Source: Muribaculaceae bacterium (GTDB taxonomy: Bacteria > Bacteroidota > Bacteroidia > Bacteroidales > Muribaculaceae). From it: DNA of 47,515 bases. The notes under the pieces were generated by a model. The model searched no databases and was not told where the DNA came from. It saw nothing but the letters and a program-made list of their open reading frames with translations. Below are positions 26,150-47,515 of the stretch, one piece after another. Position numbers and translations under genes: made by a program. The stretch covers positions 1-47,515 of the forward strand of contig JAFXHY010000209.1 of NCBI GenBank assembly GCA_017536215.1, read 5' to 3'. How positions within the stretch are numbered: position 1 is the first letter of the stretch; the number at the start of each line of letters is the position of its first letter.

Positions 26150-26172
26150 CCGCCAATTCTCTGCATAACCCT

Positions 26173-30504: not shown

Positions 30505-30554
30505 ATCCTCTGAGTCCGAAGTTATCGGCTTGCCGCTTTGCTCCGCAAAGAACA

Positions 30555-30665
30555 CTCCTCGAACACCGCACCGACGGCACCGATGCCTTCGATACTCTCT
30601 ACATCGGTTGCGAGAAATTCCCATACCACGATTCTTTTTCGCTGTCTACGAGCGGAGTTTTATAG
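30555..30665 (+). pseudogene. Orphan second copy of the terL 3' end (37 codons)
   Basis: Reads LLEHRTDGTDAFDTLYIGCEKFPYHDSFSLSTSGVL* versus LLEHRTDGTDAFDTLYIGCEKFPYRDTFTLPTAGII* at 30394-30504. Confidence 0.92.
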
Positions 30666-30717
30666 TTTGGCTATCACAATATTATTTTGTAATTTTGTGA
30701 TTATCAAACTTCAGTTT

Positions 30718-31356
30718 ATGAAATCTAAGATTACTTTTACGGCTATCATATCCTTATGCTTCATGTTTTTCTCTTGCTCCACAAAGCAAGAAAAAGGTCT
30801 TTCTGATGAGTTTCTTATAGCCAACGACGGCACAATGACCGACCACGATAAGCAGAATGTTAATCACTATAATTATTTTGTCGAGATGGCAGACTCGCTC
30901 ATCGTTTATCACAGAAACTACGATTTGCGACACATGGGACAATGCATAGTCGCCATGAATCGTTCTCGTGACAAAATATCTTGGTTTAGCCATCCTAATG
31001 ACAAACTTAAAAAAAAGACCTCCGAGAACATCTCGAAAATTCAGTCTAAACTTGACAGCCTCGGTGTTCCACAAGAGGTAACTTATCCAATAAATGTCGG
31101 GGAAATCTATCTTTATCCCAAAAACGGAGTTATTGAAATTAACACTGCATCTCCCTCAAATAATTTCAAATTATACAATGCTTCAATAGACTCCGAGGGC
31201 AATTTGGTTAGAACCGTCCATCGCCGCCATATTTTATATGAAGCGACGCAATCTCCTATTGAAGGAGTCTATACTATTAAAGACCTTACCTCTACATACA
31301 CATTAAAAGTTCAAAACGGATTTAAAGCCAGTCCCAAAATAGATTTCCATGATTGA
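30718..31356 (+). CDS. Hypothetical lipoprotein (cargo)
   Basis: MKSKITFTAIISLCFMFFSC lipobox; TAATTTTG promoter at about 30690. Confidence 0.75.
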   Translation: MKSKITFTAIISLCFMFFSCSTKQEKGLSDEFLIANDGTMTDHDKQNVNHYNYFVEMADSLIVYHRNYDLRHMGQCIVAMNRSRDKISWFSHPNDKLKKKTSENISKIQSKLDSLGVPQEVTYPINVGEIYLYPKNGVIEINTASPSNNFKLYNASIDSEGNLVRTVHRRHILYEATQSPIEGVYTIKDLTSTYTLKVQNGFKASPKIDFHD

Positions 31357-31918
31357 TATTAAAAACAACGCCCTCGGCGCTGTGGGCGAACATCAAACTC
31401 TTTCATGATTGCTACTGCTTGGCTATCAAGCTGCAATTACCAATCTATCCGTGAAGAACGATGAATCGACCGACATTTTATGCCGAGATACAAAAGGCCG
31501 ATTTGTTGCCATTCAAGTTAAGGCTACCAAAGGAGACAACATAACTGTAGGCTTTACTCATAAAGAGTTTTATGATGCCAACGGCAACTTGGATTTGGCT
31601 AAGGGCAAAGCATTTCTTGACAAGAAAATAGTCGGACCGTGGGTGCTTGTTCAAGTCTGCGGATCTACCGTTCTCCCCACTTTCAAGTTCTTCATACTTT
31701 CTCCCTCTCAAATACGAGAACTCATCTATGACTCTGAAAAATGGTATCTGACCGGCCACCATCGAGCTAAACTTCCTGATGCCTCAGGACGTATCGGTAT
31801 CCCCGTTCCTTGGTTAAACGGGCAAGGTGTTCCTGCAAATTCTAATCATGTTGAATGGATTAACCCATTCGCTTCTGAGAAGTTTGAGGACGCTTGGCAT
31901 AACTTATTGATTGATTAG
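31349..31918 (+). pseudogene. PD-(D/E)xK nuclease-like gene with an in-frame TGA at 31406-31408
   Basis: MIDIKNNALGAVGEHQTLS*LLLLGYQA...STDIL...IQVKAT. Confidence 0.7.
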
Positions 31919-31919
31919 G

Positions 31920-31992
31920 GCGTTGCGACACCGTCGCCGGGCTATTGTAAACGGAGCCTCGGTCTCCTCCATTCGGCATCTATCCCTAACGC
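31920..31992 (+). repeat. 73-nt structured repeat, copy 1
   Basis: GCGTTGCG...CCCTAACGC with inner GGAGCC-TC-GGTCTCC; homologous to 38106-38178. Confidence 0.75.
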
Positions 31993-32197
31993 TTGTCGAT
32001 AACTTCTTTGATTTTGCTGTTGGTTGGCTCACAAATTATTAGTAACTTTGCAATTACTTAACAGCAAAATCTGTAAATGACCCATTGACATCGAAAATAT
32101 AACGGCGCGAGCCGACAATTTTTTGAAACTCCCAAGTAGTTGTTACAGGCTTTGGTCGGCCTTCAGATGCTACAAGGGAGTTTTGCTTTTGCTATCT

Positions 32198-33943
32198 ATG
32201 GATCGAATAGATATGATACATACTGTTGGGCGAGAGTTCTTGGTCTCAAATATTGAGAACAATGAATTCAGCTATCAACAAGTAATAGACCGTTCATTGA
32301 GCGGCCATTATAAACTTGATATTCGTTTCTTTGATGAAAGTTCTGAAACAGCAGTTTTAATCGAAACCAAACGTAGGTTTACCAATACAGATAAAGAACA
32401 ATTGTTTGCATATGTTTCGTTGGAACAAGAACTGAATCCAGAAACTAATATTATAGCCATACTCGCTAATACTGACAATGATCAGATTAAAGTTTGGAAA
32501 TTCTCTAATAATGAAGCAGCAGGTTTGGAATTGAGCGATTCCAAATTAAAGAGTTTTGAGGAGTATAAAATGTGCTTTATCCCTCAAAATGTAAACGATA
32601 GAAATGCCGTTTTAGAGAATACTTCCAAACTTAATAAAATACTTCATGACAATGGTATTCCTGAAAAGTTAAGGAGCCAATTTGTTGGTACTTGCCTTCT
32701 TGCATTAAAAGAACGTTTGAAATTTAAAGGACTTTCCACATTTCAAATAAATGCAGGAATAAAAGAGATATTGGCATCTATGCTCCATGACAGCCTTGAT
32801 AGGGCCAAGAAACTCGTCGTATTACAAAATAACATTCTTGAAAGTCAAAGCGTTTCTTCTTTACGCTCAGAGGAATATCAAAAGATACTTCTTTTTATAA
32901 AAAAGAATATTTTACCGTACATAAATGAGTATACAACAGAGGGACACGACATACTTAGCTACTTCTTCACCACTTTCAATAAGTACGTAGCACGAGAAGA
33001 CAAAAATCAAGCGTTTACGCCAAATCACATCGCTCACTTCATGTGTAAGGTTGCAGGTATTCACCGCAATATCCGTGTTCTCGACCCAACTTGCGGTTCC
33101 GGAACTTTCTTGGTTCAATCTATGTCACAAATTCTTAAAGAATGTGAGACAGCAAGCGAGAAAAAGCATGTAAAAGAACATCAAATATATGGAATAGAAT
33201 TTGACGAGAATGTATATGGATTAGCAACCACCAATATGTTAATTCATGGTGATGGCAACTCTAACATTCAAGCAGGTTCTTGTTTTGACAAAAAGCAATG
33301 GATTGAATCATCTAATATAAATTTAGTTTTGATGAACCCACCTTATAATGCTTCAAAAAATCAAGTACCGTCTAAATATGCTCGTCTATTTGGGTCTAAA
33401 TCTACGGACCCGACAAAAGGATTAGGTTTTGTACAATATATTGCAGACACTGTAAATCAAGGTAAGCTTTTGACATTATTGCCAATGGCTTGTGCGCTTA
33501 CATCCAGTTCTGTCATCACTGATTTTAAGGAAAAAATGCTTCAAAAACACACCTTGGATGCTGTTTTTTCTTTACCTCCTGATATGTTCTATCCAGGAGC
33601 AAGTGCCGTGGCTATATGTATGGTTTTTAATTTAGGGCAACCACATCCATCTGATTTCGAAACTTTCTTCGGTTATTTTCGAGAAGATGGTTTTGAGAAA
33701 CGGAAAGGTGTTGGTCGCGTCGATATAAATGAAGTATGGGATAGCATAGAATCTGAATGGCTATCTTTATATCGCCACCGCTCTGAAATGCCGGGTAAAA
33801 GTGTTAATAGGGTTATTACTTCAAAAGATGAATGGTGCGCTGAAGCTTATATGGAAACAGATTACTCAGTTTTATCTGACAATAATTTCATTTCCGTGAT
33901 GAAATCTTATGCTGCATATTTAACAGAAAATGAATCCATTTAG
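32198..33943 (+). CDS. BcgI-like (type IIB/IIG) fused endonuclease-N6-adenine methyltransferase
   Basis: N-terminal D...LIETK nuclease motif, FTPNHI, LDPTCGSGTF (motif I), MNPPY (motif IV). Confidence 0.88.
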   Translation: MDRIDMIHTVGREFLVSNIENNEFSYQQVIDRSLSGHYKLDIRFFDESSETAVLIETKRRFTNTDKEQLFAYVSLEQELNPETNIIAILANTDNDQIKVWKFSNNEAAGLELSDSKLKSFEEYKMCFIPQNVNDRNAVLENTSKLNKILHDNGIPEKLRSQFVGTCLLALKERLKFKGLSTFQINAGIKEILASMLHDSLDRAKKLVVLQNNILESQSVSSLRSEEYQKILLFIKKNILPYINEYTTEGHDILSYFFTTFNKYVAREDKNQAFTPNHIAHFMCKVAGIHRNIRVLDPTCGSGTFLVQSMSQILKECETASEKKHVKEHQIYGIEFDENVYGLATTNMLIHGDGNSNIQAGSCFDKKQWIESSNINLVLMNPPYNASKNQVPSKYARLFGSKSTDPTKGLGFVQYIADTVNQGKLLTLLPMACALTSSSVITDFKEKMLQKHTLDAVFSLPPDMFYPGASAVAICMVFNLGQPHPSDFETFFGYFREDGFEKRKGVGRVDINEVWDSIESEWLSLYRHRSEMPGKSVNRVITSKDEWCAEAYMETDYSVLSDNNFISVMKSYAAYLTENESI

Positions 33944-34964
33944 TAATACTAAACTTTTCTCAGTAAAGGAATTATTCCCTTTACTTGTAAACGGAAAAGG
34001 TAATAATAACTTATTATCTGATGGTGATTCTGTACCATATCTTGGTGCAAAAAAGGATGATAATGGAGTGATGCGATATTGTGCCTACGATAGCGCACTA
34101 ATTATGAAAGGAAATTGTATCTGTTTCATCTGTAATGGAGCGGGGTCAGTGGGTTATACCCTTTATATGGATAGACCATTTATAGCTACATCAGATATTG
34201 TTGCTGGCTATAATGAAAAACTTAATCCATATATAGCAATGTACCTTATTTCTCTCTTTGATTTAGAGCGTCCACGTTTTTCATACGGGCGAAAATGGAA
34301 AAAAACGCTTAAGGACACAACGATCCCACTTCCTCAAACAGAAAACGGCACAGTTGATTGGGCGGCAGTAGATTCTTATATTAAAAATTCTATATTGCCG
34401 TTGCTTCCTACCCGTGCGAAGACAATTTGGAATCGTGGACCCATTAATAAACCGATATTTCAGAAAAAGATAAATCTTAATGATAAAATATGGCGTTATT
34501 TCCATATTGCAACATTGTTTAACTCATTTGAAAAATGCAAATGTTCAAGCGCTTCAGAATTATTGGAAGATGGCAATGAAATAGCATATATCGGGGCGAA
34601 AAAAAGTGACAATGGTGTCATGAAATATGTAAAAAGAGAAGAATCCTTAGTTACTAAAGGGAACTGTATTGTTTTTATTGGTGATGGGCAGGGATCAGTA
34701 GGTTATTGTTTGTATCAACCGAATGATTTTATTGGCTCTACAACTCTTGTTGCCGGATATATAGATAACTTGAATCAATATATAGCTCAATTCTTAGTCA
34801 CAGTTCTTGATATGGAAAGATATAGGTATTCTTTCGGGCGTAAATACAATAAGAGTGCTATTATTAATAGTAAAATTAAGCTACCAATAGACGATAAAGG
34901 TAAACCAGATTGGCAGTTTATGGAGAACTATATAAAGAGTCTACCTTTCAGTTCAAATATCTAA
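33930..34964 (+). CDS. HsdS-like specificity subunit (two TRD repeats)
   Basis: Internal duplication YLGAKKDDNGV/YIGAKKSDNGV, FSYGRK/YSFGRK, and PDWQFMENYIK. Confidence 0.88.
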   Translation: MNPFSNTKLFSVKELFPLLVNGKGNNNLLSDGDSVPYLGAKKDDNGVMRYCAYDSALIMKGNCICFICNGAGSVGYTLYMDRPFIATSDIVAGYNEKLNPYIAMYLISLFDLERPRFSYGRKWKKTLKDTTIPLPQTENGTVDWAAVDSYIKNSILPLLPTRAKTIWNRGPINKPIFQKKINLNDKIWRYFHIATLFNSFEKCKCSSASELLEDGNEIAYIGAKKSDNGVMKYVKREESLVTKGNCIVFIGDGQGSVGYCLYQPNDFIGSTTLVAGYIDNLNQYIAQFLVTVLDMERYRYSFGRKYNKSAIINSKIKLPIDDKGKPDWQFMENYIKSLPFSSNI

Positions 34965-34991
34965 GTTAACAATACTTTTTATAATATTTAA

Positions 34992-35909
34992 ATGGAACTC
35001 GATACTCTTAAACAAGAAACCAATCTTCGTAAGGCTTGGCCTAACGAAGCCAAAGACTTTACTCCGTGGCTTGCCGAACATTTAAGTTATGTTGGCGACA
35101 TTCTCGACATGGAATTGGAACTCGTTGAGAAAGAATCAAAGGTAGGAGGCTATTCCGCTGACATTTTAGCGAAAGAAGCTAATACCGACAATTATGTCGT
35201 TATCGAAAATCAGTTGGAAGATTCCAACCATACTCATCTCGGACAACTTTTAACATACGCTTCGGGCAAACAAGCCAAAGCAATAGTTTGGGTCGTTAAA
35301 AAAGCACGTGACGAACATAGAGAGGCTATTGAATGGCTCAATGACAATACTGTCCCTCAAATTGCTTTTTACTTGTTAGAAATTGAACTTTGGCAAATCG
35401 GCTCATCCAAATTAGCTCCCAAATTTAATATTGTGGAACGACCTAATGAATGGGCAAAGACGATAAAACCAAATACTGACGCTTCCGACACTCAGGTATT
35501 GCAACTTGAATTTTGGCAAGCATTTAATGACCATGCCGGGACTACGACATTCATCAAGTCGTTCAGACTCCGTACTGCTAAATCTCAAAATTGGTATGAC
35601 CTTGCTGTTGGAGATAGTCGTTTTCATATTTGCTTAGAAGCTAAAAAACAGAAAGGTGAAGCCACGGTCGGAATATACATTCCGGACGACAAACAGCTAT
35701 ATAATGGTTTCCTTAAGCACAAAACCGAAATAGCAACAGCACTCGGTGTTGCAGAAAATGACATCGAATGGAAAGATGCCTCAAAAGCCACCCGCTTTTA
35801 TCTAAAGAAAAATTTCGATATGGCCGATACCGGTCAATGGATAATCGTTTTCAAATGGTATATTGAAAACTGTTTGGCAATTAAAAAACTAATTCCATCA
35901 ATTATTTGA
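34992..35909 (+). CDS. NucS-like PD-(D/E)xK nuclease with a DUF4268-like C-terminus
   Basis: EAKDFTPWL, ADIL, VVIENQL...HLGQLLTYASG, EFWQAF. Confidence 0.8.
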   Translation: MELDTLKQETNLRKAWPNEAKDFTPWLAEHLSYVGDILDMELELVEKESKVGGYSADILAKEANTDNYVVIENQLEDSNHTHLGQLLTYASGKQAKAIVWVVKKARDEHREAIEWLNDNTVPQIAFYLLEIELWQIGSSKLAPKFNIVERPNEWAKTIKPNTDASDTQVLQLEFWQAFNDHAGTTTFIKSFRLRTAKSQNWYDLAVGDSRFHICLEAKKQKGEATVGIYIPDDKQLYNGFLKHKTEIATALGVAENDIEWKDASKATRFYLKKNFDMADTGQWIIVFKWYIENCLAIKKLIPSII

Positions 35910-36012
35910 AACCGTCAGAATTTCAAATATCGTGAAAATTCAAAACGTTAGTTGCTTTGAAATCCGCAGATAGCTACTTCTCAACCTCAAAACAACTTTT
36001 CAATATATAGCC

Positions 36013-36267
36013 ATGACAAAATTAGGAAAAGTCAAATCGTGGTACATAGACCCCGAAGACAATAAACTGACATACTCTCAACATAATATTCTGTTCGTAG
36101 AAGTAATTGACGGACAGAAGTATTACACCGCTCGTCATGATTCCGTTGAGTCTGACGATTACGATGCAGCAGTAGAAACCGGTGCATTTGAACTCTGCGG
36201 ACAGACCTACAACGCACGTTTCGCTGACATCTATGGTCGAGAGAACTACACCAACGTGACAATATAA
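36013..36267 (+). CDS. Hypothetical protein (cargo)
   Basis: Short ORF with an AT-rich leader, followed by a partial repeat. Confidence 0.6.
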   Translation: MTKLGKVKSWYIDPEDNKLTYSQHNILFVEVIDGQKYYTARHDSVESDDYDAAVETGAFELCGQTYNARFADIYGRENYTNVTI

Positions 36268-36277
36268 TGAGTTTCAA

Positions 36278-36307
36278 GAGTTGCGGCCACGCCGCCGCGC
36301 TTTCGTA
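36278..36307 (+). repeat. Truncated copy of the 73-nt repeat
   Basis: GAGTTGCGGCCACGCCGCCGCGCTTTCGTA matches the 5' half of 38106. Confidence 0.7.
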
Positions 36308-36342
36308 TAAAATATTACTTACAATCAACACATAAAGTAATT

Positions 36343-36924
36343 ATGGTAGATTTATCTCCTTTATTTCCCGAAGCGCAAACAAATATGCGCAACTGGAAAA
36401 ACCGCTACGATGCTGACGAGTTCCCCTATAAGGTCTCGCTCAACATCTTCTATCGCCGCTACACTATGATGTATATGTGGCAAGACATTATGGCTTATGC
36501 CAACGGTCTTAAAGGCCGTAAAGATTTCCAAACCGCTTACCGCGAATTGGAAATGTTATACGCTCAAACTTCAGGTAAGACTCGTATGGTTCTCGAAGAC
36601 AACCTGAGAAACAAGCCAAACGAAAATGTTGGTGGCAGCACTTTCGCTCACTATAACGAGCTTATAAGAAAGACTCGTCAAGGTGACAGGCAGGCTAAGG
36701 AAGAAATAGAGTTCTCCTATTTCTACTATTTCCTTGCTGACAAGGCGACCCTTCTTTGGGCAGCAATCTGTGCAACCGGAGTATCAAAGATTGATGCCGT
36801 CGCTCAGTTGACTGGCTTCCAAATTCAGCCAATGCCTCTCGAAGACTATGCAACCGTTAGCAACGGCTTAGGTCAGCTCGCTGCAGCACCTTTCTTGAAT
36901 AAGCATTATTCGCCTATGCCTTAA
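36343..36924 (+). CDS. Hypothetical protein (cargo)
   Basis: 193-aa ORF ending 4 nt before the next gene. Confidence 0.75.
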   Translation: MVDLSPLFPEAQTNMRNWKNRYDADEFPYKVSLNIFYRRYTMMYMWQDIMAYANGLKGRKDFQTAYRELEMLYAQTSGKTRMVLEDNLRNKPNENVGGSTFAHYNELIRKTRQGDRQAKEEIEFSYFYYFLADKATLLWAAICATGVSKIDAVAQLTGFQIQPMPLEDYATVSNGLGQLAAAPFLNKHYSPMP

Positions 36925-36928
36925 TCTT

Positions 36929-38095
36929 ATGGACGAAGAATATCAAGCAGTCATAAATAGACTTCTCGGAATAAAAGGTTTTGCTAAATTTATGCAAACC
37001 TTTCGTCAAACTGACAATGGAGAGAAACCAATTGTACAGATGATTAACGGATTCAAAGAATATCGTAATTCTTCTGAACCCTTAACTCAGCCTGAAATTT
37101 GGCTACTTGATACCATACAAGATAAGTTGTTTGAGTTATGCCATCGACATCACTCAAACAACTTATTTTACCTCAATGAACACGAAACTATTGGTGATGA
37201 AATCCTTAACGAATTTCGTAAAGATTGGGATGCTTCAAGCAGCGGCAGATGCGCCTATGTAGATCGCGAAAGCAAGATTTACAAAACATTTCGTGAAACA
37301 ACTATCTATGATGAACACCAAGACAATGGTATCATATTAAAATATGATAATGCTAATCATCCTTTAATTTATTCTACTATTGGTAAGGCTCTCTTGAATG
37401 GGGGATTTTTTACCCATGGCTTCCCATTTATTTCCAAGGGTTTCGCTTATGCCAACAAAGCTCATAACATTTTTTGGCATAGTCCATATGGCGTTTTCGG
37501 TTGTACAGAATGTATTTGGGAATTTATCAGGCTGCTTTCAATTGATACGCTGAAGAATAAATATGCCGATTATTACAAGCCGTTAATAAAACTGCTGTTA
37601 GTCTATCTTTCTCGTTCAATTGCATTGTGTCACATTACTAAATTGCCTCAGGCAATAGATTTTTATAAAAATCGAGCATTTTTACTGAAAGACCACTATC
37701 CTATATTTATGGCAATTTTCGCTGATTACGGATTTTTTGCTACAAATATGGAAGTTCAATTTGTTTCAGATAACTTTTTGGGTTATCAATTTGCTGCCGA
37801 ACTTGGCGCACCTGCCCTTGGTGCGGAAATGCTTAATGACTCAAAAAAGATGTATTCATACGGCAGCTTAAATTATTTTAATGAGGATAATGGTCTAAAG
37901 GATATTGAGGATGCTACATGGTTTGAATTGGTCGAAAGAGGAAAATTTAGAATGAATAAAGTTGCTGAAGAAATTATTAAAGAATTGGAACGAGGAGAGT
38001 TAATGATTGATAATATCGTATACAAAAAAATGTTGGAGGATATTTACACTTCAAACAGCAACTCTCATAAACGTTTTGACTGGAAAGAATCATGA
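36929..38095 (+). CDS. AT-rich hypothetical cargo protein, paralogue of 22298-23473
   Basis: HPLIYS, FWHSPYG, YLSRSIA, YSYGSL..GL.DIE.ATWFEL. Confidence 0.8.
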   Translation: MDEEYQAVINRLLGIKGFAKFMQTFRQTDNGEKPIVQMINGFKEYRNSSEPLTQPEIWLLDTIQDKLFELCHRHHSNNLFYLNEHETIGDEILNEFRKDWDASSSGRCAYVDRESKIYKTFRETTIYDEHQDNGIILKYDNANHPLIYSTIGKALLNGGFFTHGFPFISKGFAYANKAHNIFWHSPYGVFGCTECIWEFIRLLSIDTLKNKYADYYKPLIKLLLVYLSRSIALCHITKLPQAIDFYKNRAFLLKDHYPIFMAIFADYGFFATNMEVQFVSDNFLGYQFAAELGAPALGAEMLNDSKKMYSYGSLNYFNEDNGLKDIEDATWFELVERGKFRMNKVAEEIIKELERGELMIDNIVYKKMLEDIYTSNSNSHKRFDWKES

Positions 38096-38105
38096 TACAA
38101 TGTGG

Positions 38106-38178
38106 GAGTTGCGGCATCGCCGCCGCGCTTTCGTAAATCGAGCCTTGGTCTCGACCGTAAGGCTTCAATCGCTAACTC
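38106..38178 (+). repeat. 73-nt structured repeat, copy 2
   Basis: GAGTTGCG...CGCTAACTC with inner TCGAGCC-TT-GGTCTCGA. Confidence 0.75.
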
Positions 38179-38182
38179 ATAC

Positions 38183-38218
38183 GCGAGCTTCGACACCGTC
38201 GGGCTCGCTTTTCTTTTT
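38183..38218 (+). terminator. Terminator closing the cargo block
   Basis: GCGAGCTTCGAC-ACC-GTCGGGCTCGC followed by TTTTCTTTTT. Confidence 0.75.
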
Positions 38219-38236
38219 ATATGGATGTCGCCCCGA

Positions 38237-39056
38237 GGCGATGAATTTTGAGCATAGAGAGGAATTTGACCGTGCTTTGATGCCCTTTGAGGGAGGGATT
38301 TATCAGTAATTACCCCGAACTTTATGTTTCGTCGACTCGTACATTGAGCGATTTTGTTCTCCTGTTCTTCATCGGTTGGGCTTCGTTATTCCGTCTACGT
38401 TACGCTTTGGCCGTCGGTGATTACACGGTGTTGATGTTCCGTATTCGCTTGGGCTGTCGGCCGTTCACAGCCAAATATGCCTTGCAGGTTACGTGAGCCA
38501 TTATTTTGACAAGACGTTTCATAGGGCATACTTGTATGACGCGCTCGGAGCAGCATTGTATTTACATCGCGAAGTTAGCGTCTTTATCTACGCTCGAAAA
38601 GGGCAGGTAAATTCGCTCAAAAAATCTTCCTTTTTTACTGCTTAAAAAAGAGTATTCAAGGGGCAAGCCCTTTTGGACGAACCCTTGTCGGCTAACGTGC
38701 CGGGAGGCACTGATTGGGTCAGACGCATATTCTGCGGTGTAAAACAAACGCGCCCCGGCGCACAAGTAAAACCCAATAAAACTTCAAAACAATGACCCAC
38801 GTAATGAACATATTCGACAGCTCTCTCAACTCCGACAGCTCAATCAAATACTACTCAGTAGAAGTAATCACTTTCGATGGCGAAAGCTACACAGAAGAAA
38901 TCGAAGCCCGCGACGCCGACGAAGCCCAGGAAATCGCAGCTTCAATGTACGACGATGTCGACTACACAATGGTTCAGGGTTGCTTCGCATACTGATAAAT
39001 CAATTCTCCCTCAAAGGGGCTGCTTCGGCAGCCTTCTTTTTTGCTCATTCATCGCC
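38237..39056. repeat. Giant imperfect inverted repeat B (mirror of the 38792 gene)
   Basis: Ordered matches CACGTAA, CCGACAGC, GTAATCAC, CGAAGCCC, TCAATGTACGA, TACTGATAAATC, CTCCCTCAAAGGG, TTCATCGCC. Confidence 0.92.
38792..38995 (+). CDS. Small acidic protein (candidate anti-defence factor)
   Basis: 67 aa with 15 D/E and 2 K/R; A-rich leader; terminator at 39018-39042. Confidence 0.8.
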   Translation: MTHVMNIFDSSLNSDSSIKYYSVEVITFDGESYTEEIEARDADEAQEIAASMYDDVDYTMVQGCFAY

Positions 39057-39909
39057 AACGGCAGCTCCGTTGATTTCCACTGCGTTAATGCTGTCGCGGT
39101 CAGACTCTTTAGCCGTGAGGGCTATCGGGCAGGTGCCTGTCGGCCATCCGAGCTGTCCGCTCCGTTCAATTTGCCGATTTCCATTGTTTCAGGTCGGGTG
39201 ATACTTCGTTTGTTGTCGGAGGATTGAGAGCTATTCTCGCACCGTTGAACTCGACCTTTGCCCTCGCTGACGCACCAACCGCAGGGCTATGGCTCATCTC
39301 GTCCGCTGCCTCTTTTACCTTTTACCATTTACCTTTTGCCTATCAGATGTGTACATCATTGTGAAGCGGTCAGACTTTCGGGCGCGACGGACACCGCCGC
39401 CGCTTGCCTCGATTGAATGCGTTCGATGTGTTCTTGCTACGCAAGCGGCAAGCCGGTGAGGCGTCGCTCCATATCAAGCGCAAGACCATACAGCAGCACT
39501 CTTTAGCCGCATCCTCAGCCTACGCCATGGGTAAACCTTGAACGACATACCGCTGAACTTGCTGCCACGATTGAGTGCGGAGTTGTGTGCCGGTCTCTCA
39601 GGCGGGGCAGTTTGAACCTCTTTTCTGCGTTCAGTTTTCCTTTTGCCAATCTCGTATTCGGGGAGTGAACCGAGGTCTATTTTTCCTGTACAAAGTTAGG
39701 TCGCCAACTCAACTTCCCTCCGGCTCTCTAAAACCGGCTGCGCCTATTTCTGCGACAATTTTACGAAAAATGGTACAAGCCTCATTTTTAGACGCCCGGC
39801 TTAAAATTCTCTGTAAATTTTTGTTCGGTCTCAAACAGCTTCCCACTTGATTGTACCGTAAAAATTAAGAGCCTCGGCTCACATTTCAAACCCCAAATAC
39901 TTCAAAACT

Positions 39910-40200
39910 ATGGCAAAGAAAACTAAAAAATCCGCAGAGAACATCACAGCTCAAACAGCAGTTCCAGCCGTCGAGACTACTCCGGCTACATCAACTCCCA
40001 AGCTCATCGTGGCTCAACGCAAGTTCAACCGCTGGTATGTCTACTTCAAGGGCGTTGCCCCCAAGGACAATGTAGGCTGCGGATGCAAGACAGCCAAGAG
40101 TGCTATGCGCTATATGCACTTGCTCAGAGCTCGCTACGGAGCAACGATTTCACAAAACATCTATGAACGCCTCCAGTTCGAGGCCGCGAGAGAGGCGTAA
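39910..40200 (+). CDS. Small basic hypothetical protein
   Basis: A-rich leader; first gene of module C. Confidence 0.8.
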   Translation: MAKKTKKSAENITAQTAVPAVETTPATSTPKLIVAQRKFNRWYVYFKGVAPKDNVGCGCKTAKSAMRYMHLLRARYGATISQNIYERLQFEAAREA

Positions 40201-40248
40201 GCCTCCCTCGCTTTTAGCCCGAAAGTTAAACCGCTAATTCTCACAATC

Positions 40249-40452
40249 ATGTACGAATACATCTGCTACACAAAACAAGGAAAATGGAAGTTCAATGCTG
40301 ACAGCGATATGGACGCGATGCGCACAGCCCTTTATTACTGTTGGCGCGACGGCGAGGACTTTATCAAGGTCGAGTTCGTCAAAGGTTGCGAGAATTACAC
40401 GCTCTCAATCCTACATATCGACAACAATTCACGCGAAGTATTCACCCTCTAA
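40249..40452 (+). CDS. Small hypothetical protein
   Basis: Second gene of module C. Confidence 0.75.
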   Translation: MYEYICYTKQGKWKFNADSDMDAMRTALYYCWRDGEDFIKVEFVKGCENYTLSILHIDNNSREVFTL

Positions 40453-40463
40453 AACCCGAAACA

Positions 40464-40718
40464 ATGGAAATCAATTACGGCAAATTCACCGAACAAGAGC
40501 TGCAAGTAATCCTCGATGCAGCGCGTACTATCAACTACGCCTTTGGCACTCAATTTCCGAGCCACAGCGAGCAGATAGCTCTCCTGATTGAAGACCTGCA
40601 CTTCCGCATCATCAATCAAATAGTCATTCAGAGCTACAATGCACTTCGCAAGAAGTACATCGAGCGTGGCATCGACCCCGACGCTCCCGATTTCGTTCCC
40701 GACCATTTGGAGAAATAA
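40464..40718 (+). CDS. Small hypothetical protein
   Basis: Start MEINYGKF after AAACCCGAAACA; followed by a terminator. Confidence 0.75.
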   Translation: MEINYGKFTEQELQVILDAARTINYAFGTQFPSHSEQIALLIEDLHFRIINQIVIQSYNALRKKYIERGIDPDAPDFVPDHLEK

Positions 40719-40739
40719 CTTCTCCAAACCGTCCGCATC

Positions 40740-40772
40740 GCGGCTGCTCCCATAAGGGGAGTGGCCGCTTTT
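40740..40772 (+). terminator. Terminator of the module C operon
   Basis: GCGGCTGCTCCC-ATAAG-GGGAGTGGCCGC-TTTT. Confidence 0.8.
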
Positions 40773-40785
40773 GCTGTCTATCGGT

Positions 40786-40820
40786 GTCTTTTCGGCTGCA
40801 TCAACTGCAAACTACATTTG
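40786..40820 (+). promoter_or_regulatory. Candidate phage late promoter, copy 2
   Basis: GTCTTTT-N20-TACATTTG. Confidence 0.75.
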
Positions 40821-40824
40821 CAGT

Positions 40825-41925
40825 ATGATACGAATAGGATATTATTCATCGGGCATTATCTTCTCCGCAGACTTGCCCGATATTCAGGTTTTCACCGACC
40901 ACAGCTTCGCTGATGTTCGCTTGCTATATGGCGGCATCGAACTGCTGTCAGGACGTTACTATGCCAATAACGGCACAGTGACCGTCCACGACATCGCGCC
41001 GCTTATCGAGCAAGCTCTTTCGGGCGATACGGAGTTCAACACCGCCGAGTTCACCATCGAGGCTTGCAACGATGATGAAGATGCCGAGTCGGTCAGTTTT
41101 ACCGCCATGTTCTGCAACCGCGAGACTGGGTTGTATGACACTGCGCCGTGGTTGACCGAGAATTTTCTGACTACCGTCCGCACTCGTCGCATCGCCCCCA
41201 ACGGTTGGGCGCATCTGTCGTGGTACACAACCGAGCGCGAGGGCATCGTCCTTTTCGTGCTGATAACATACCTCGATGATAACGGCAACCGCCAAACGTA
41301 TCGTTGGCTGCACTCCGGCAACGGTCAGATTGCCCATATCAACGGAGTGCTGCACGTCTATTTCTCGCTCGATGATTTGCGCAATACGCTCCGAGAGAAA
41401 CGCAAGGTCAACAATCCGACCCTGCTTTCATTTACGGTGCAACGCGGCAACCGTATGGCTACCTATTTCGTTGACCCGGCACTCTCCGATGTGCCTGTGT
41501 TCCACTTCGCCAACTGCTTCAATATGCTTGAACAGTTGCCGGTGCAGGGTGTTACCACCTCGAAAATCAAGGCTGACCGCTCCATTGCCTCGCTCGGCAA
41601 GGACTCGCAATTCTATGATGTCACGGTCAGCAAGGAGTATGAAACGCAGACCGCACCGCTCACCTCGGAGGAGTGCGAGCTGATGGAACAGATGCTTACC
41701 TCTAATGATGTGCGCATACCATACGGCGAGGGCGCGGAATACGAAAATGACTTCTACGCCATGAAGTCGATAATGATTACCGACTTCACCTCGGAGATAC
41801 AGGACGGCGATGAAAAACTTAACTCCGTCAAGTTTACGTGGCGTTTCGTCCACAACTTGCCGAGTATCGCGCTGCCTGATACTCCCGGCATCTTCAATGA
41901 CAAGTTCAACCCGATTTACTCGTAA
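40825..41925 (+). CDS. Hypothetical phage (probably structural) protein
   Basis: Beta-rich ORF behind the late-promoter motif; C-terminus IFNDKFNPIYS. Confidence 0.7.
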   Translation: MIRIGYYSSGIIFSADLPDIQVFTDHSFADVRLLYGGIELLSGRYYANNGTVTVHDIAPLIEQALSGDTEFNTAEFTIEACNDDEDAESVSFTAMFCNRETGLYDTAPWLTENFLTTVRTRRIAPNGWAHLSWYTTEREGIVLFVLITYLDDNGNRQTYRWLHSGNGQIAHINGVLHVYFSLDDLRNTLREKRKVNNPTLLSFTVQRGNRMATYFVDPALSDVPVFHFANCFNMLEQLPVQGVTTSKIKADRSIASLGKDSQFYDVTVSKEYETQTAPLTSEECELMEQMLTSNDVRIPYGEGAEYENDFYAMKSIMITDFTSEIQDGDEKLNSVKFTWRFVHNLPSIALPDTPGIFNDKFNPIYS

Positions 41926-41928
41926 CCA

Positions 41929-42162
41929 ATGGCAAGGTCTATCCACATATCCACCGCTCGCGCGATGCTCAACTCCGGCGACCCTGTCGATATTTCCGTA
42001 TGGAAATCCGACGGCTCAATTCTTCACCTGCAAAATTGCATCTCGCTCCGATATGATTTTTACGGCGGTTGGCGCAACGTGAAGTTGCTGACCTCAGGCG
42101 AATGTCGCCGCGTCCGCGACTGCTGCATCTTCCGCGTCAACGACTTGGAAGTATTTCTTTGA
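41929..42162 (+). CDS. Hypothetical phage protein
   Basis: Starts 3 nt after the upstream stop; located near the portal gene. Confidence 0.75.
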   Translation: MARSIHISTARAMLNSGDPVDISVWKSDGSILHLQNCISLRYDFYGGWRNVKLLTSGECRRVRDCCIFRVNDLEVFL

Positions 42163-42247
42163 TATTCTCAATAATAAAGGTCAATCTTTGGTAATCAGAG
42201 AATTTTGTGCTAATTTTGCACATAGCAAACTTCAAAATTTTCTGCAT

Positions 42248-42619
42248 ATGAACTATAATGGTATACAAATGGCGGCAGTAATTAAAGCTGCAAATGCTAT
42301 GATAGCTGCCGATGGTCGTATAGACCAAGCCGAGACTCAACTGCTCTCTCGCGAACTTATCAACTTTGGTGTAGAGCCGCAACAGCTTCCGCAGCTTCTT
42401 GAACTCAGCAAAGTAATGGAACCCACTACTATGCTTGCAACTCTTGCTGCAATGAATGAGTCGCAAAAGAAATACGTTTCAGGATTCCTCGCTACAATTA
42501 TGATTAGTGATGGAGACATCGATGACTCGGAGATGAAGCTTTGGCAACTGACATCAACTCTGATGGGATGCCCAACTATGACTCTACAAGAGGCCCTCGA
42601 ATATTGGGGTAATAATTAA
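42248..42619 (+). CDS. TerB-family (tellurite-resistance-like) protein, moron
   Basis: IAADGRIDQAE and MISDGDIDDSE paired motifs; own TAATTTTG promoter; AT-rich. Confidence 0.8.
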   Translation: MNYNGIQMAAVIKAANAMIAADGRIDQAETQLLSRELINFGVEPQQLPQLLELSKVMEPTTMLATLAAMNESQKKYVSGFLATIMISDGDIDDSEMKLWQLTSTLMGCPTMTLQEALEYWGNN

Positions 42620-42634
42620 GACGCCTAAATAAGC

Positions 42635-42669
42635 GTCTTTTCGCATCCAACATACCGTCCATAACTTTG
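42635..42669 (+). promoter_or_regulatory. Candidate phage late promoter, copy 3
   Basis: GTCTTTT-N20-TAACTTTG. Confidence 0.75.
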
Positions 42670-42688
42670 CTGAAAATCTCAGCAAGTT

Positions 42689-44029
42689 ATGGACGCTTCT
42701 TTTTCTCTAAACTACAACTCCGTTGAGAACGTGCCGGGCTATGAAGCCCGTGCAGCGTTCATTGTCAACTCCGCATCCGTATTCAAGGAGGATGTGGATA
42801 TTGTGCCGACTATCGTAGACGATAGTCTGAGTTATATTCCGTGGGGCGGCGACAATCAGATGCCGTTCAATATTCTTGACCTTATCGAGAAAGACGAAAC
42901 ACTCGCCACCTGCCAGTGTTTCAACGCCGAGGTCTGTTATGGCGCAGGGCTCAGGTATGATACCTGCATCGCTTCCGCAGCGGTCAAGAGTGCCGTCGAG
43001 GACTTCACTCTTGACAACGACCTCGCCTCATACTTTCTCGGAGTGTCGCAGGACTTTAAGCACTTCGGCTTTGCCGTGTCGGTGCTTATTCTCAACGAGG
43101 ACGGCTCGCGCATCGTCCGTCTGTTGAGAAAGGAAGCCTGTTATTGCCGCTTCACACCGGCTGACAAACACGGTCGCATTTCCAAAATCCTTTACGCCAA
43201 TTGGCGCAAACCTCTCTCGTCGCGCAGCGACATCGAGGAAATAGACCTGCTCGACCCGGCTTCTCCGTGGCGAGATCTGCAAGACAAACTCGCCCAAAAA
43301 ACACACTGCCGCAAGTTCGCCATCGTCAGCCGTATTCCTACGGTTGACTCTACCTATTATCCTATTCCTTATTATGGTGCGTTGTTCCGAGGCAAGTGGT
43401 ACAACATCAAACAGCTTATCGGCATTGCTAAGGAAGCGAAGCTGAAAAATTCAGCGCCGATTAAGTACCACATCGAGATAGGCAAGACATACTGGGAGTC
43501 CATATTCCGTGCCGAGGGCATCACCGACCGCCGCAAGCAACAGGAGCGCATTGTGCGCGAGAAGCAGCAAATCCTCGATTTCCTGACAGGCGCGGAGAAC
43601 TCCGGGAAAGCCTGGTTCTCCACTTTCTACATCTCGCCCGACGGCAAAGAGCAGCACGATGTCGTAATCAACAAGATTGACGACTCGAAAGAGGGCGGCG
43701 ATTGGGAAACCGACATTCAAGAAGCAATCAATATGATATGCTTTACTATGCGTGTGCATAGTAACCTTGTCGGCTCAGTCCCCGGCAAAGCCCAGTCCAA
43801 CAACTCCGGCTCGGACAAGCGCGAACTTTACACAATCGCCCAAGCCCTTCAGAAACCGTATCACGACCTGCTCTTTACCGTCCATCGCATCATCATCCGC
43901 TTTAACAAGTGGGATAACGTCACCGTAGGTGTGCCGTTTATCCAACTTACGACTCTGGACGAACATCAAGACGCAAAGCAGGTTAAACTTCCAAACTCCA
44001 ACTCAGACAATGAAACTGATAACGACTGA
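42689..44029 (+). CDS. Portal protein
   Basis: 446 aa; YIPWGGDNQMP, YYPIPYY, LTGAENSGK, VHSNLVG, SGSDKRE pattern of Bacteroidetes phage portals. Confidence 0.8.
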   Translation: MDASFSLNYNSVENVPGYEARAAFIVNSASVFKEDVDIVPTIVDDSLSYIPWGGDNQMPFNILDLIEKDETLATCQCFNAEVCYGAGLRYDTCIASAAVKSAVEDFTLDNDLASYFLGVSQDFKHFGFAVSVLILNEDGSRIVRLLRKEACYCRFTPADKHGRISKILYANWRKPLSSRSDIEEIDLLDPASPWRDLQDKLAQKTHCRKFAIVSRIPTVDSTYYPIPYYGALFRGKWYNIKQLIGIAKEAKLKNSAPIKYHIEIGKTYWESIFRAEGITDRRKQQERIVREKQQILDFLTGAENSGKAWFSTFYISPDGKEQHDVVINKIDDSKEGGDWETDIQEAINMICFTMRVHSNLVGSVPGKAQSNNSGSDKRELYTIAQALQKPYHDLLFTVHRIIIRFNKWDNVTVGVPFIQLTTLDEHQDAKQVKLPNSNSDNETDND

Positions 44030-44846
44030 GGTGCAGTTACGCGCCCATATCCCCAACATCATCGCCACGGTCAAGGGCGAGATGCCCTATATCGAAAGGC
44101 TTGCGCACTTTCTCGACCTTGCCGAAGACTGGGTAAAAACGACTTTCACTTCGGAAAGTACGTTCAACACTATCTGCGGTTATACCGACAGCAACAATAT
44201 CAAGATATTGTGCAGCCGTTTGGTCGTTGCCGACGCTCTGCGCCGTGCAATTCCCTCGCTCGACATCGTGCTTACTCCAAATGGCTTTGGAGTTGTCAGC
44301 ACTCAGAATCTCGCGCCGGCATCCAAGCCACGTGTCGACAGGCTCGTCGGCTCGATGCTCGCTCACCGCGACGACTGCATCGCTGCACTTCTACCCGAAC
44401 TCGTCGGGGCATCGAAGTGGCTCACATCCAAGCAAGCCGACTTCTTCGGCGCAACACTTTTCCCTGACCTCGCTATCGTTGACAGCATCGGTAACGTGCA
44501 GGGATGCCGTTGGGAAAAGTATCTCGAACTCCGCTCAAAGGTCATAGACCTTGAAGCCTCGTTAGCCGAAGAATGGTTCTCTCGTGAGCTGATGGAAAGC
44601 CTCAGATATAGCAACCTTATCAAGCAGATAAGTTTCCAGAAAGCGTTAGTCGTGAATCAAATTCAATCCCAAATCGTGGGCTATCTTACAGTCGGGAGTT
44701 TCAATTCACGTCGCCTTGCCGACATAGTGAACTATATCCGTCAGGACGAGGACGAATTTCACGAATGGCATACATCGGAAACCGCGAAGCTGTTCTCGCC
44801 GCCGGTATTCCGCAACGAAAAGAAAGCGCGTGGCTATTTCTTCTGA
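44010..44846 (+). CDS. Putative head-completion/adaptor protein (DUF6712-like)
   Basis: Overlaps the portal stop; AIPSLDIVLTPNGFGVVS, APASKPRV. Confidence 0.6.
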   Translation: MKLITTEVQLRAHIPNIIATVKGEMPYIERLAHFLDLAEDWVKTTFTSESTFNTICGYTDSNNIKILCSRLVVADALRRAIPSLDIVLTPNGFGVVSTQNLAPASKPRVDRLVGSMLAHRDDCIAALLPELVGASKWLTSKQADFFGATLFPDLAIVDSIGNVQGCRWEKYLELRSKVIDLEASLAEEWFSRELMESLRYSNLIKQISFQKALVVNQIQSQIVGYLTVGSFNSRRLADIVNYIRQDEDEFHEWHTSETAKLFSPPVFRNEKKARGYFF

Positions 44847-45364
44847 GGCATACAGCAGTCGGTGAGCCACGAAGTCGCGGATGTTCCTTTGCTGATATGA
44901 TGAAACTGAGGGTCATGGCACGGGACACTGATTTTCCGAGGCGAAGTTAGAATATCCGCTCACTTGTCAAGGACACCGCAAGTTGTCTGCCATTCTCATA
45001 CTTCCGAAGCGCATCCAATCCTTGACATCTCCGTTCGCTACGGATATTCAATTACTTGCCCGTAAAATCTGAAGTGCCTCGGCACATAACCCCAAAAACA
45101 GTTTCATCATGATTACATCAGCAAATCACATCAAACAAGACGACTTCGTCAACCTCACCGACTATTCGGCTGTATGCCCCAAAGGCAAACGCACTTTCTT
45201 CACTTTCGTTCACTTCTTGGACTACTCGACGGCTCACTGGAGCAACATCTTCGCTCTCAACCGCAAGGATGCCATGACGCAAGTCCTCGCCAAGTTCTCG
45301 GACTGCATTGAGCATATCCGCGAAATCGCCCTCTATGAGAAAGACGTGGATTGAAACTCCCGAC
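44691..45364. repeat. Imperfect inverted repeat D (mirror of the 45109 gene, overlapping the 44010 CDS)
   Basis: GTCGGGAGTTTCAATTCACGTC (44691-44712) versus GACGTGGATTGAAACTCCCGAC (45343-45364), 21/22 complementary; also CAGTTTCATCAT, CGACTTCGT, CTCACCGACT, GCTGTATGCC, CGGATATTC, TCCTTGACA. Confidence 0.92.
45109..45354 (+). CDS. Small hypothetical protein (module D)
   Basis: Leader like those of modules B and C; hairpin at 45374-45402 downstream. Confidence 0.75.
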   Translation: MITSANHIKQDDFVNLTDYSAVCPKGKRTFFTFVHFLDYSTAHWSNIFALNRKDAMTQVLAKFSDCIEHIREIALYEKDVD

Positions 45365-45405
45365 CACGACTCTGCGACGGCTCCCCATTCGGGAGCCGTT
45401 GCCAT

Positions 45406-45440
45406 GTCTTTTCGGCAACCGGCTTTCCACCGTACTTTCG
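45406..45440 (+). promoter_or_regulatory. Candidate phage late promoter, copy 4
   Basis: GTCTTTT-N20-TACTTTCG. Confidence 0.7.
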
Positions 45441-45462
45441 CATAGTCAAATTACATTCAACT

Positions 45463-46209
45463 ATGCAGACAATTTCCATTAACTTCATCTTGCCGGATGA
45501 CTGGCAAGAATTGGGCGACAAACGACTTCGCTATGTCTACGAACTCATCGCCGCAGAACATACAACTGACGAGATAAAGACCATTTGCTTGCTTCGTTGG
45601 AGCGGCACAAAGGTTATCGGTCGTAAAGACAGCGGCTCGTATCTGCTTAAAAAAGGTAAACTTCTTTTTGAGGTTACGTCCGTGACCCTCGCAGAGCTAC
45701 TGCCGCATCTCGCATGGCTCGGCTCACTACCGACCGTTCCTGTCCGGCTCTCGAAAATCAACCGTCAGCAAGCACTTCCGGCTGACTTCGAGGGTGTGCC
45801 GTTTGAAACCTACATCATCTGCGATAACCTCTATCAAGGTTATCTGTCAACGCAGAATGATGCGCTTCTCGACCAACTCGGCGCTACGCTCTACGGCAAG
45901 TCAATGTCTTTCAAGCCGGCTGAGCGCATCAATATCTTCTACTGGTTCGCCGCGTTGAAAGAAACGCTGTCAAAGAAATACTCCGACTTCTTTCAGCCGT
46001 TGGCAGGTGTCGACGACGGCAACCTGCTCGGCTCGTCTACCTCGGTAGAGGATGCGATGAACGCACAAATTCGTGCGCTCACCAAAGGGGATATTACCAA
46101 AGAAGCCGAAGTCCTCGCCCTCGATACGCACCGTGCTTTAACGGAGTTAAACGCACAAGCGCGTGAATACAAGGAACTCAATGCCAAAATCAGCACCAAT
46201 GGGAAATAA
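45463..46209 (+). CDS. Hypothetical phage morphogenesis protein
   Basis: Long ORF in the structural module. Confidence 0.7.
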   Translation: MQTISINFILPDDWQELGDKRLRYVYELIAAEHTTDEIKTICLLRWSGTKVIGRKDSGSYLLKKGKLLFEVTSVTLAELLPHLAWLGSLPTVPVRLSKINRQQALPADFEGVPFETYIICDNLYQGYLSTQNDALLDQLGATLYGKSMSFKPAERINIFYWFAALKETLSKKYSDFFQPLAGVDDGNLLGSSTSVEDAMNAQIRALTKGDITKEAEVLALDTHRALTELNAQAREYKELNAKISTNGK

Positions 46210-46711
46210 CTCATCAACTCATTTACTCGGTCGTTGGGACGCATCGCTTTTCTTTGAAAATCTGTGCTTGACCAATGGACTTGCCAACGCTGAACACTTC
46301 GTGTTTTGTCGCGTCAGCGGTTTGGAGGGCTTCGAGGAAGCACTCGCGCAGATGCAGACCGCCACCGCGTTCTGCTGTGTCTCGGATATTGCCGACGGAT
46401 ATACAGAATTAAACAACACTCCGAGGACGCGGCGAGTAAAGACCGTTTTCCTCGCCATGCGCCACGCCGCCGAAGATATGGCGGCTCGCTCGGAGTGTAT
46501 GGAAATTATGCGCGAATTGTTCCGACAATTTATGTCGAAACTGATACTGGAGAAAACTCGGCTCGAAGAAAATTGCATTTACATCGACCCCCGAATATCG
46601 TTCAACGAGATTGACCGATACTTTTTCTCCGGCTGTGCTTGCGCATATTTCCAAATCGCTGTCGATGTCTACACCGATTTAAGATACAACGAAGATGAGT
46701 GGAACGGATGA
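46181..46711 (+). CDS. Hypothetical phage protein (possible tail completion)
   Basis: Overlaps both neighbours; start uncertain (46181 or 46199). Confidence 0.65.
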   Translation: MPKSAPMGNNSSTHLLGRWDASLFFENLCLTNGLANAEHFVFCRVSGLEGFEEALAQMQTATAFCCVSDIADGYTELNNTPRTRRVKTVFLAMRHAAEDMAARSECMEIMRELFRQFMSKLILEKTRLEENCIYIDPRISFNEIDRYFFSGCACAYFQIAVDVYTDLRYNEDEWNG

Positions 46712-47123
46712 ACAGCTTGAAGCCCGGCGTAAATACGTCCGTGCCTTCAACGCCACTATGGTAAAGATATGGCGCGAACAAATCGCACTGCTCGGAGCGG
46801 TAGACACAGGAGCGTTGTACCGCTCAACGGTCGGCATCTCCATAACTGCCGACGGAAAATTTATTGACATCACCCTCTCGCAAGCCTTTAATACATACGG
46901 ATTGTTTGTGGATTACGGTACGGGACGCAATACTCCGCGAGGCAACCCCGGCGACATTGGCAAAGCCAATGGTCGCAAACGCAAGCGTTGGTTCTCTCGC
47001 AAGTATTATGCCTCCGTGATGAACATTCAGGAATTTTATGCCGACAGCCTCGGACAAGAATTTTGTCGGGCAGTTTCCAACGCCCTCAATCCCGACATCA
47101 TGCGTCGGTCAGTGACACTCTGA
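46695..47123 (+). CDS. Putative neck/virion morphogenesis protein
   Basis: AVDTGALYRS, YGLFVDYGTG and RKRWF motifs of HK97 gp10-like proteins. Confidence 0.65.
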   Translation: MSGTDEQLEARRKYVRAFNATMVKIWREQIALLGAVDTGALYRSTVGISITADGKFIDITLSQAFNTYGLFVDYGTGRNTPRGNPGDIGKANGRKRKRWFSRKYYASVMNIQEFYADSLGQEFCRAVSNALNPDIMRRSVTL

Positions 47124-47136
47124 CCTCGCTTTACGT

Positions 47137-47171
47137 GTCTTTTCGTCTGTATAGTGATAGCCATAACTTTG
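47137..47171 (+). promoter_or_regulatory. Candidate phage late promoter, copy 5
   Basis: GTCTTTT-N20-TAACTTTG. Confidence 0.75.
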
Positions 47172-47192
47172 CTGCATCTAATCAGCATCGTT

Positions 47193-47515
47193 ATGGCTAT
47201 CGACACAAAATCAATAACCCAACTCATTACTGAGTTTCGCGCCATGCAAAGCAAGGACGCTGTCTCGCCCGAATCGCTTGGCTATATTCTGCAACGTCTT
47301 GCAGACCTTATAGCCACAGCCGGTACGGCTGAAACGCAGAAAATCATCAACGACTGGTACAACTCTTTGTCAAAGGTTGACCATATCGCTGTCTGCAAGT
47401 TGCAGCAAGGCTCGCCCGACCGTAACTTCGTTAGGCTCTCGAACACGTTCATTGACCTATTGACAGGTCAGCAAATGACTAACGAGAACGCAACCATCAT
47501 CAATATGGCGACCAC
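47193..47515 (+). CDS. 5' part of a phage protein, possibly tail fibre (runs off the window)
   Basis: MAIDTKSITQLITEFRAMQSKDAVSPESLGYILQ..., open to the window end. Confidence 0.7.
   Translation, partial: MAIDTKSITQLITEFRAMQSKDAVSPESLGYILQRLADLIATAGTAETQKIINDWYNSLSKVDHIAVCKLQQGSPDRNFVRLSNTFIDLLTGQQMTNENATIINMAT

Follow-up and report, generated by a model that had tools for sequence, protein, structure and literature searches.

Whole-gene inverted duplications with putative single-stranded DNA promoters in a Muribaculaceae prophage

Results

The prophage and its four mirrored modules

The stretch of Muribaculaceae DNA analysed here (47,515 nt, hereafter the window; Table 1) contains a prophage that encodes, besides the proteins listed in the table, a DUF6712 protein. 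TerL was recognized by its ATPase and acidic nuclease motifs in a by-eye reading, and the best matches of the low-confidence capsid model (pLDDT 50) were HK97-type capsids and encapsulins (E 6e-4). No solved relative of the C-terminus of the DnaG primase was found. Related prophages continue downstream with an amidase gene, a long gene named tape-measure-like by its appearance, and a final 600-aa gene. The presence of an HK97 capsid, terminase, portal and, in the relatives, a tape measure points to a temperate tailed dsDNA phage of Caudoviricetes-like type. Some TerL match was found in 141 of the 401 host-family genomes. A homologue of gene B occurs in the named species Duncaniella muris, and the gene order ardA-primase-ClpP recurs in named Muribaculaceae assemblies, which makes a host from this family likely.

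Further features of the prophage were recorded on the way. Genes for a type I-like methyltransferase, a specificity subunit and a DUF4268 protein (32123-35909) lie in the same prophage as ardA. The conserved 173-aa gene in front of the terminase (27490-28011) gave a weak match to tyrosyl-DNA phosphodiesterase (E 2e-4) and possibly encodes a nuclease. The 3′ end of terL (30400-30476) is repeated directly, in degenerate form, at 30561-30637 (74% over 77 nt), which suggests insertion of a moron via recombination at the end of terL. The host genome holds two further prophages of the same family (G000:C52 and G000:C67; TerL 86% and 78%), and these contigs gave no cassette calls.

Four modules of the prophage, A (ardA), B, C and D, are whole-gene inverted duplications in which promoter, gene and terminator are all mirrored. 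For each centre, the left half was reverse-complemented and aligned to the right half; we call the left, degenerate and non-coding arm the shadow. The shadow is an indel-rich, backwards copy of 0.3-0.7 kb with 59-64% identity to the gene arm. The arm-versus-arm alignments of the four modules scored 141-302, whereas shuffled sequences reached at most 35-37 and the remaining centres of the window at most 46. In the 1.8-Mb host assembly (216 contigs), calls at a score of at least 80 comprised these four modules only. Rfam covariance models matched nothing in the window except the tRNA, and nothing in three related loci (L083, L091, L127) at E≤0.1. Module A carries ardA, and B, C and D carry small proteins without a known family; with the relatives included, the cargo comprises ArdA, RadC and a PRTase-like protein. 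An anti-defence role also appears plausible for the B, C and D proteins.

Table 1. Coordinates of the prophage genes and of the elements of modules A to D in the window
Feature	Position	Strand	Remarks
Source stretch (window)	1-47,515	forward	47,515 nt; Muribaculaceae bacterium, GCA_017536215.1, contig JAFXHY010000209.1
Prophage context	12314..47515	+	Adjoins tRNA gene; truncated by contig end
Integrase	12588-13913		Prophage gene
DnaG primase	15901-19209		Prophage gene; Walker A motif
Module A shadow arm	20807..21472	-	Arm alignment; box TAACTTTG at 21440-21447
Module A gene arm	21527..22290	+	Arm alignment; anti-restriction gene ardA 21586-22242
ClpP	23565-24542		Prophage gene
HK97-like capsid	24564-25523		Prophage gene
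TerL	28795-30504		Prophage gene
Module B shadow arm	38237..38583	-	Arm alignment, score 173, 64% identity
B -7 box TAACTTCG	38570..38577	-	Non-template strand in predicted hairpin
B inner stem and loop with side hairpins	38584..38720		Holds plus-strand TAAATTCG at 38608-38615
B -33-like T-rich element	38594..38602	-	19-20 nt upstream of box; predicted pairing with ~38682-38690
Module B gene arm	38721..39056	+	Broken box 38726-38734, 5′UTR, gene, terminator
Gene B	38792..38995	+	67-aa acidic beta-beta-alpha-beta protein; 443 homologues
Terminator-like hairpin and T-run after gene B	39016..39045	+	
Module C shadow arm	39163..39698	-	Arm alignment 39163-39693; box TAACTTTG at 39691-39698
Module C gene arm	39851..40491	+	Two-ORF unit, 39910-40200 and 40249-40452
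Portal	42689-44029		Prophage gene
Module D shadow arm	44667..44973	-	Box TAACTTCG at 44942-44949; TCCTTGACA -33 stem
Module D gene arm	45019..45394	+	81-aa ORF 45109-45354

The initial annotation had described module B as a split promoter whose -7 box exists only on the mirror arm and faces a mismatched bubble. The arm sequences it quoted are exact: on the minus strand, the left arm (38561-38583) reads AGACGC-TAACTTC-GCGATGTAAA and the right arm (38721-38743) AGACGC-ATATTCT-GCGGTGTAAA. The boxes of all four modules likewise lie where it had placed them, each on the minus strand. The inverted arms are thus real, but their extent had been taken too small, as they reach over the whole gene and its terminator. 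The boxes of B and D deviate by one letter from TAnnTTTG, the -7 element of Bacteroidetes. By analogy with a Bacteroides thetaiotaomicron transcript that starts 6 nt after TACCTTTG (PMC7366714, supplement file 3), the +1 of gene B is predicted at ~38739-38741. The B protein matched no Pfam, PHROG or NCBIfam family, and Foldseek returned nothing significant (best E 0.29). Its model shows a non-significant likeness to uracil-DNA glycosylase (UDG) inhibitors of the phi29 p56 type (E 0.44), which we note as a lead only.

Position and geometry of the promoter box

Scans of 113 viral loci yielded 83 non-redundant cassettes of this build, the four of the window included; since cassettes within a family are related, they represent about 5-6 independent units. 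In 82 of the 83 cassettes, the motif TAnnTT[T/C]G lies on the minus strand of the shadow; none has it on the gene arm. The chance of finding it is ~10-14% per 170-nt tile (19/202 and 28/202 background tiles). A set of 34 calls from near-whole prophages, overlapping partly with the 83, gave a similar picture, with a strict box on the shadow in 32 and on the gene arm in a single case that has a shadow box as well. The two calls without a strict box carry degenerate boxes in the same orientation, and one of the 34 calls (L149) lies in host DNA. Near-whole prophages down to ~50% TerL identity contain both short, promoter-only and long, whole-gene forms. No cassette was called in the fetched stretches of G470, G466, G513, G352, G371, G428, G469 and G000:C67.

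Promoters of B. thetaiotaomicron consist of TAnnTTTG and TTTG, separated by an AT-rich spacer (PMC7366714). The 8-mer of the gene arm that lies opposite the box starts with TA in none of the 82 cassettes. Of the 82 shadows, 60 have a -33-like word 17-21 nt upstream of the box, compared to 17 of the 82 gene arms. When the minus strands of the 82 cassettes were folded in silico, the invariant A of the box was the least paired position (P 0.18), and the mismatch was centred on the TA of the box. The proposed bubble is, however, only partial: the TTTG half of the box is mostly paired (P 0.67-0.94), and pairing of TTTG and the region downstream amounts to 0.5-0.97. According to these predictions, folding of the template strand would restore both promoter elements, at a working spacing, within a stem. 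The spacer of the shadow boxes has a GC content of 0.62, compared to 0.27 for 244 host boxes; a leftward start from the shadow box in the lysogen may therefore be weak.

The initial annotation had also stated that the genes have no matching promoter in dsDNA. The lack of a box on all 83 gene arms agrees with this statement, which nevertheless does not hold absolutely for B, whose loop contains the plus-strand motif TAAATTCG. Motif look-ups in the transcription start sites of B. thetaiotaomicron (PMC7366714, file 3) returned ordinary promoters only and, within the entries consulted, no start site in a hairpin. As a separate observation, the same types of promoter hairpin stand before the different genes A, B, C and D (e.g., L008, L022, L092, L093), which suggests that hairpin cores have been swapped between cassettes.

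Pairing between the arms and strand bias

The shadows co-vary with the genes that they mirror. A shadow scored its own coding sequence above that of a relative in 130 of 136 pairs for A, 220 of 231 for B and 201 of 210 for C; for D, the co-variation is weak, with 61 of 105 pairs for and 36 against. The shadow extends to the stop codon in 73 of 75 cases, and the shadow-versus-gene comparison revealed no codon-position periodicity. Among the unpaired stretches (bulges) of the gene arm, lengths of 4-5 nt are the most common (20% and 17%, versus 11% and 7% in a neutral simulation), and perfect-match runs do not exceed 15 nt in 76 of the 83 cassettes.

G·T wobble pairs, counted from isolated mismatches between the arms, are more frequent on the template strand (10.5-12.9%) than on the coding strand (6.1-9.1%) in all five groups, and 77 of the 83 cassettes favour the template strand. 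The template:coding ratio rises from 1.4 in loosely paired contexts to 2.3-2.7 where pairing is good. The bias is reversed in L110 (5:14), L297 (2:20) and L296 (22:34), which counts against a template-strand rule. The same applies to module B of the window, which shows no strand preference: its G·T ratio is 17:15, and both strands fold about equally well (z-score of -3.3 on either). Mutation of a transcribed shadow (C>T and A>G) could account for part of the bias. A B-type subfamily with the box TAACTTAG and a coding-strand wobble bias was seen at L110:2074-2770 and L297:8650-9210 (oriented).

A hairpin of the same build upstream of ardA in conjugative transposons

In Bacteroidales conjugative transposons with MobABC and TraG/M, ardA lies behind a hairpin of the same build, with TACCTTTG on the distal arm only, opposite a broken copy, and with a paired -33 region. 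Among the ardA loci retrieved with a conjugative-transposon query, 62 of 80 have an upstream hairpin. Thirteen non-redundant ardA hairpins, a few of them phage-type, carry the box on the distal arm in 12 cases and on the proximal arm in none, at a G·T ratio of 180:61. The gene traN was present in 53 of the 80 loci, always antisense to ardA; these loci stem mostly from one transposon family. A search for plasmid-borne ArdA matched mainly Enterobacterales.

Three transposons that could be read through (G194, G252, G135:C4) carry ardA in the sense of mobABC. Provided that the relaxase gene enters last (PMC11541004), this orientation would make the ardA template strand the transferred strand in all three. 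We found no literature on the transferred strand of CTnDOT. In four ardA loci, the upstream mob gene has the opposite sense and probably belongs to a neighbouring element.

Two side observations concern the extent of the hairpin. In the loci L177-L251 (ardA at ~10001), a short hairpin lies ~215 nt before ardA, with a template-strand G·T bias that often reaches 13:1. A whole-gene shadow over ardA occurs in a conjugative-transposon context in L125:1450-2730, and a similar one in the short contig L245.

Discussion

A promoter that would work on single-stranded DNA

We consider it likely that the cassettes are Frpo-like ssDNA promoters for a Bacteroidetes sigma factor, stretched until the whole gene becomes duplex. 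When single-stranded, the template (minus) strand would fold back, with the shadow serving as the non-template strand. In this fold, the -33-like element would be paired and normally spaced, with the TA of the -7 box open, i.e., pre-melted; the host RNA polymerase would then transcribe the gene for as long as the second strand is missing. The remainder of the shadow would offer the polymerase a gapped duplex along the gene and terminator; the long arm may help RNA release or delay second-strand synthesis like ssp2. In dsDNA, the TA is missing from the gene arm, where the -33 spacing is usually wrong as well, and the box of the shadow aims away from the gene behind a GC-rich spacer. The gene would then be off, and second-strand synthesis would act as the off switch. 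The on/off switch set by strandedness that the initial annotation had proposed is supported, on the level of sequence, by the confinement of the box to the shadow arm, by the co-variation of the arms, by the wobble pairs of the template strand and by the same layout before transposon ardA. From these features we infer that the cassettes probably fold in vivo and are transcribed in this state.

Class 1 ssDNA promoters (Frpo/ssi) and those of classes 2-3, described for F, ColIb-P9 and pESBL, likewise rebuild their boxes by a stem-loop of the template strand (PMC9849209, PMC11541004, PMC12672017, 10.64898/2026.01.09.698686). As presented in these reports, Frpo/ssi are off in dsDNA and drive anti-restriction genes including ardA, the same logic as proposed here, and second-strand synthesis switches the Frpo-driven gene off (PMC9849209, PMC12672017). 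Their boxes are of the -35/-10 type, whereas the cassettes have Bacteroidetes -33/-7 boxes; the likeness described here is one of architecture. The Frpo/ssi promoters presented there are intergenic stem-loops, whereas the cassettes fold back along the whole coding sequence and its terminator, with which the shadow co-varies. Moreover, a leading region of the Frpo type contains an oriT and a relaxase gene. Searches of the prophage for mobB, mobC and traG homologues and for matches to three transposon oriT regions found no such arrangement, whereas the transposon copies lie on MobABC elements. The phage cassettes are therefore best treated as a variant, not a member, of the Frpo-type class.

EGeRS1 of the pLS20-family plasmids resembles the cassettes in placing long structured regions without a dsDNA promoter before establishment genes (ardC). 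In EGeRS1, however, it is the non-template strand that is transferred, no promoter box was found, and there is no copy of the gene (PMC8708921). Distant relatives by TerL (27-35% identity) are the cultured phages Bacteroides BT-TP2, Flavobacterium 6H (Duneviridae) and Mea-Yong924-1 and the uncultured MT835542. We detected no cassettes in these four; the best scores in 6H were 56-68, and the other three gave nothing. Our searches of the open-licence PMC and bioRxiv literature turned up no account of ssDNA promoters in Bacteroidetes or in phages, nor of whole-gene fold-backs.

Alternative explanations

The main rival reading places the effect in the RNA: a read-through transcript of shadow and gene would fold into a long duplex and hide the start codon, and expression would be possible only from a start within the loop. 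This reading does not require an ssDNA stage, and it fits the plus strand, which also folds stably (-173 versus -182 kcal/mol for B). Besides the TAAATTCG motif in the B loop, a plus-strand box occurs in the left half of 8 of 22 B cassettes, and a few cassettes have a plus-strand wobble bias. The predominant bias, however, lies on the template strand, and no plus-strand box lies within 170 nt of the centre in A, C or D (0/54). Furthermore, the conserved minus-strand box opposite a TA-less partner is left unexplained. We thus regard RNA silencing as an unlikely sole explanation; it could act as a secondary lock alongside the ssDNA promoter.

The identity of ~60%, the many indels and the absence of an ORF in the shadow would also suit decayed, non-functional inverted duplications, or copies renewed by gene conversion, and conversion or repeated duplication could produce co-variation. 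Yet a similar identity is kept across divergent phages and genes, the box is fixed to one arm, and the peak in bulge length differs from the neutral simulation. The short perfect runs are unlike recent conversion tracts. This explanation is accordingly very unlikely. We assign slightly less credence still to an ordinary dsDNA or alternative-sigma promoter in the loop, for which the hairpin would be merely an insulator or replication roadblock. Structured non-promoter elements before the pLS20 establishment genes (PMC8708921) and ssp2, described as a roadblock (10.64898/2026.01.09.698686), provide precedents, but such a promoter leaves the conserved box, spacing and bubble geometry of 82 cassettes unexplained.

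The position of TAnnTTTG within inverted repeats, aimed away from the gene, is shared with the invertible promoters of Bacteroidales, and the cassettes might represent the OFF state of a phase-variable promoter. Unlike in those systems, the arms are gene-length and degenerate, at ~60% identity, and the modules have no recombinase site in common. No flipped cassette was seen among the 83 cassettes and the 34 calls. Of 17 joints, the 15 listed for four runs were all skips without a strand change, which is weak evidence as it comes from contigs only. We therefore judge inversion to be highly improbable. Phage N4 uses a cruciform promoter that is extruded by supercoiling. Such a mechanism would again not require an ssDNA stage, but with long loops, imperfect arms and an extrusion cost of ~700-1450 kcal/mol per cassette (nearest-neighbour estimate), it is the least credible of the readings considered here.

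Possible sources of single-stranded phage DNA

The dsDNA packaging genes of the prophage (HK97-like capsid, TerL, portal, tape measure) count against the ssDNA-promoter reading. No homologues of mobB, mobC or traG and no relaxase were found in the prophages examined, and four-fold-site composition, with T>A on the coding strand, gave no sign across the genome of a minus strand that is single-stranded. If the ssDNA-promoter model holds, mobilisation in trans by conjugation, starting at a cis site, is a quite conceivable source of the single strand, although short of probable. The displaced strand during replication is conceivable too, if a little more doubtful. Single-stranded DNA in the virion or at entry appears rather unlikely, and any other source still more so.

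Relatives of the prophage contain a conserved, hairpin-rich non-coding region of 1.5-2.5 kb before the tape-measure gene, a part that lies beyond the contig analysed here. This element was present in 29 of 401 family genomes, and its minus strand folds better in 13 of 14 cases (raw values, uncorrected for composition). Its core also occurs after the primase gene of integrase-HTH-DUF3987-BT4734/PriCT-2 elements (L329:2331-15436, L331:234-15270, L327, L330, L332). Both L329 and L331 have three cassettes immediately next to the element, with phage-like polarity, which corresponds to the geometry of a leading region; the two loci extend to the ends of their contigs and are possibly chimeras that include phage DNA. 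The primase-integrase elements are possibly satellites or relaxase-less mobilisable elements. For the region before the tape-measure gene, candidate roles are those of an oriT acting in trans, of a single-strand origin and of a packaging site. This region matched no plasmid and no Rfam family, and comparison with three transposon oriT regions gave no match. A strict pattern of the element was found in none of 401 order-wide genomes, and a common contig end was not seen. Prophages of G617, G161 and G686 have a cassette but no match to the element. Internal direct repeats were noted in the element at L083:12900-14500, L091:14160-16500, L146 and L152.

Implications

The cassettes provide putative sequence rules for ssDNA promoters of Bacteroidetes, predicted start sites included, and these rules extend to the ardA hairpins of many conjugative transposons from the gut. 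The architecture, a non-coding mirror copy kept matched to a whole gene, is absent from the literature searched. The Frpo-like trick is known from conjugative plasmids and is unexpected in a tailed phage; it would imply a strand-specific single-stranded stage in a common family of tailed phages. The cassettes also offer a means of picking candidate early anti-defence genes, such as B, C, D and others. In its widest form, which we put forward tentatively and hold to be possible rather than probable, the finding would mean that a widespread family of temperate tailed gut phages enters new cells as ssDNA, whether the virion contains or releases the DNA in this form or conjugation carries it along via a shared cis site, and that self-templating whole-gene hairpins allow anti-defence genes to be expressed ahead of second-strand synthesis.
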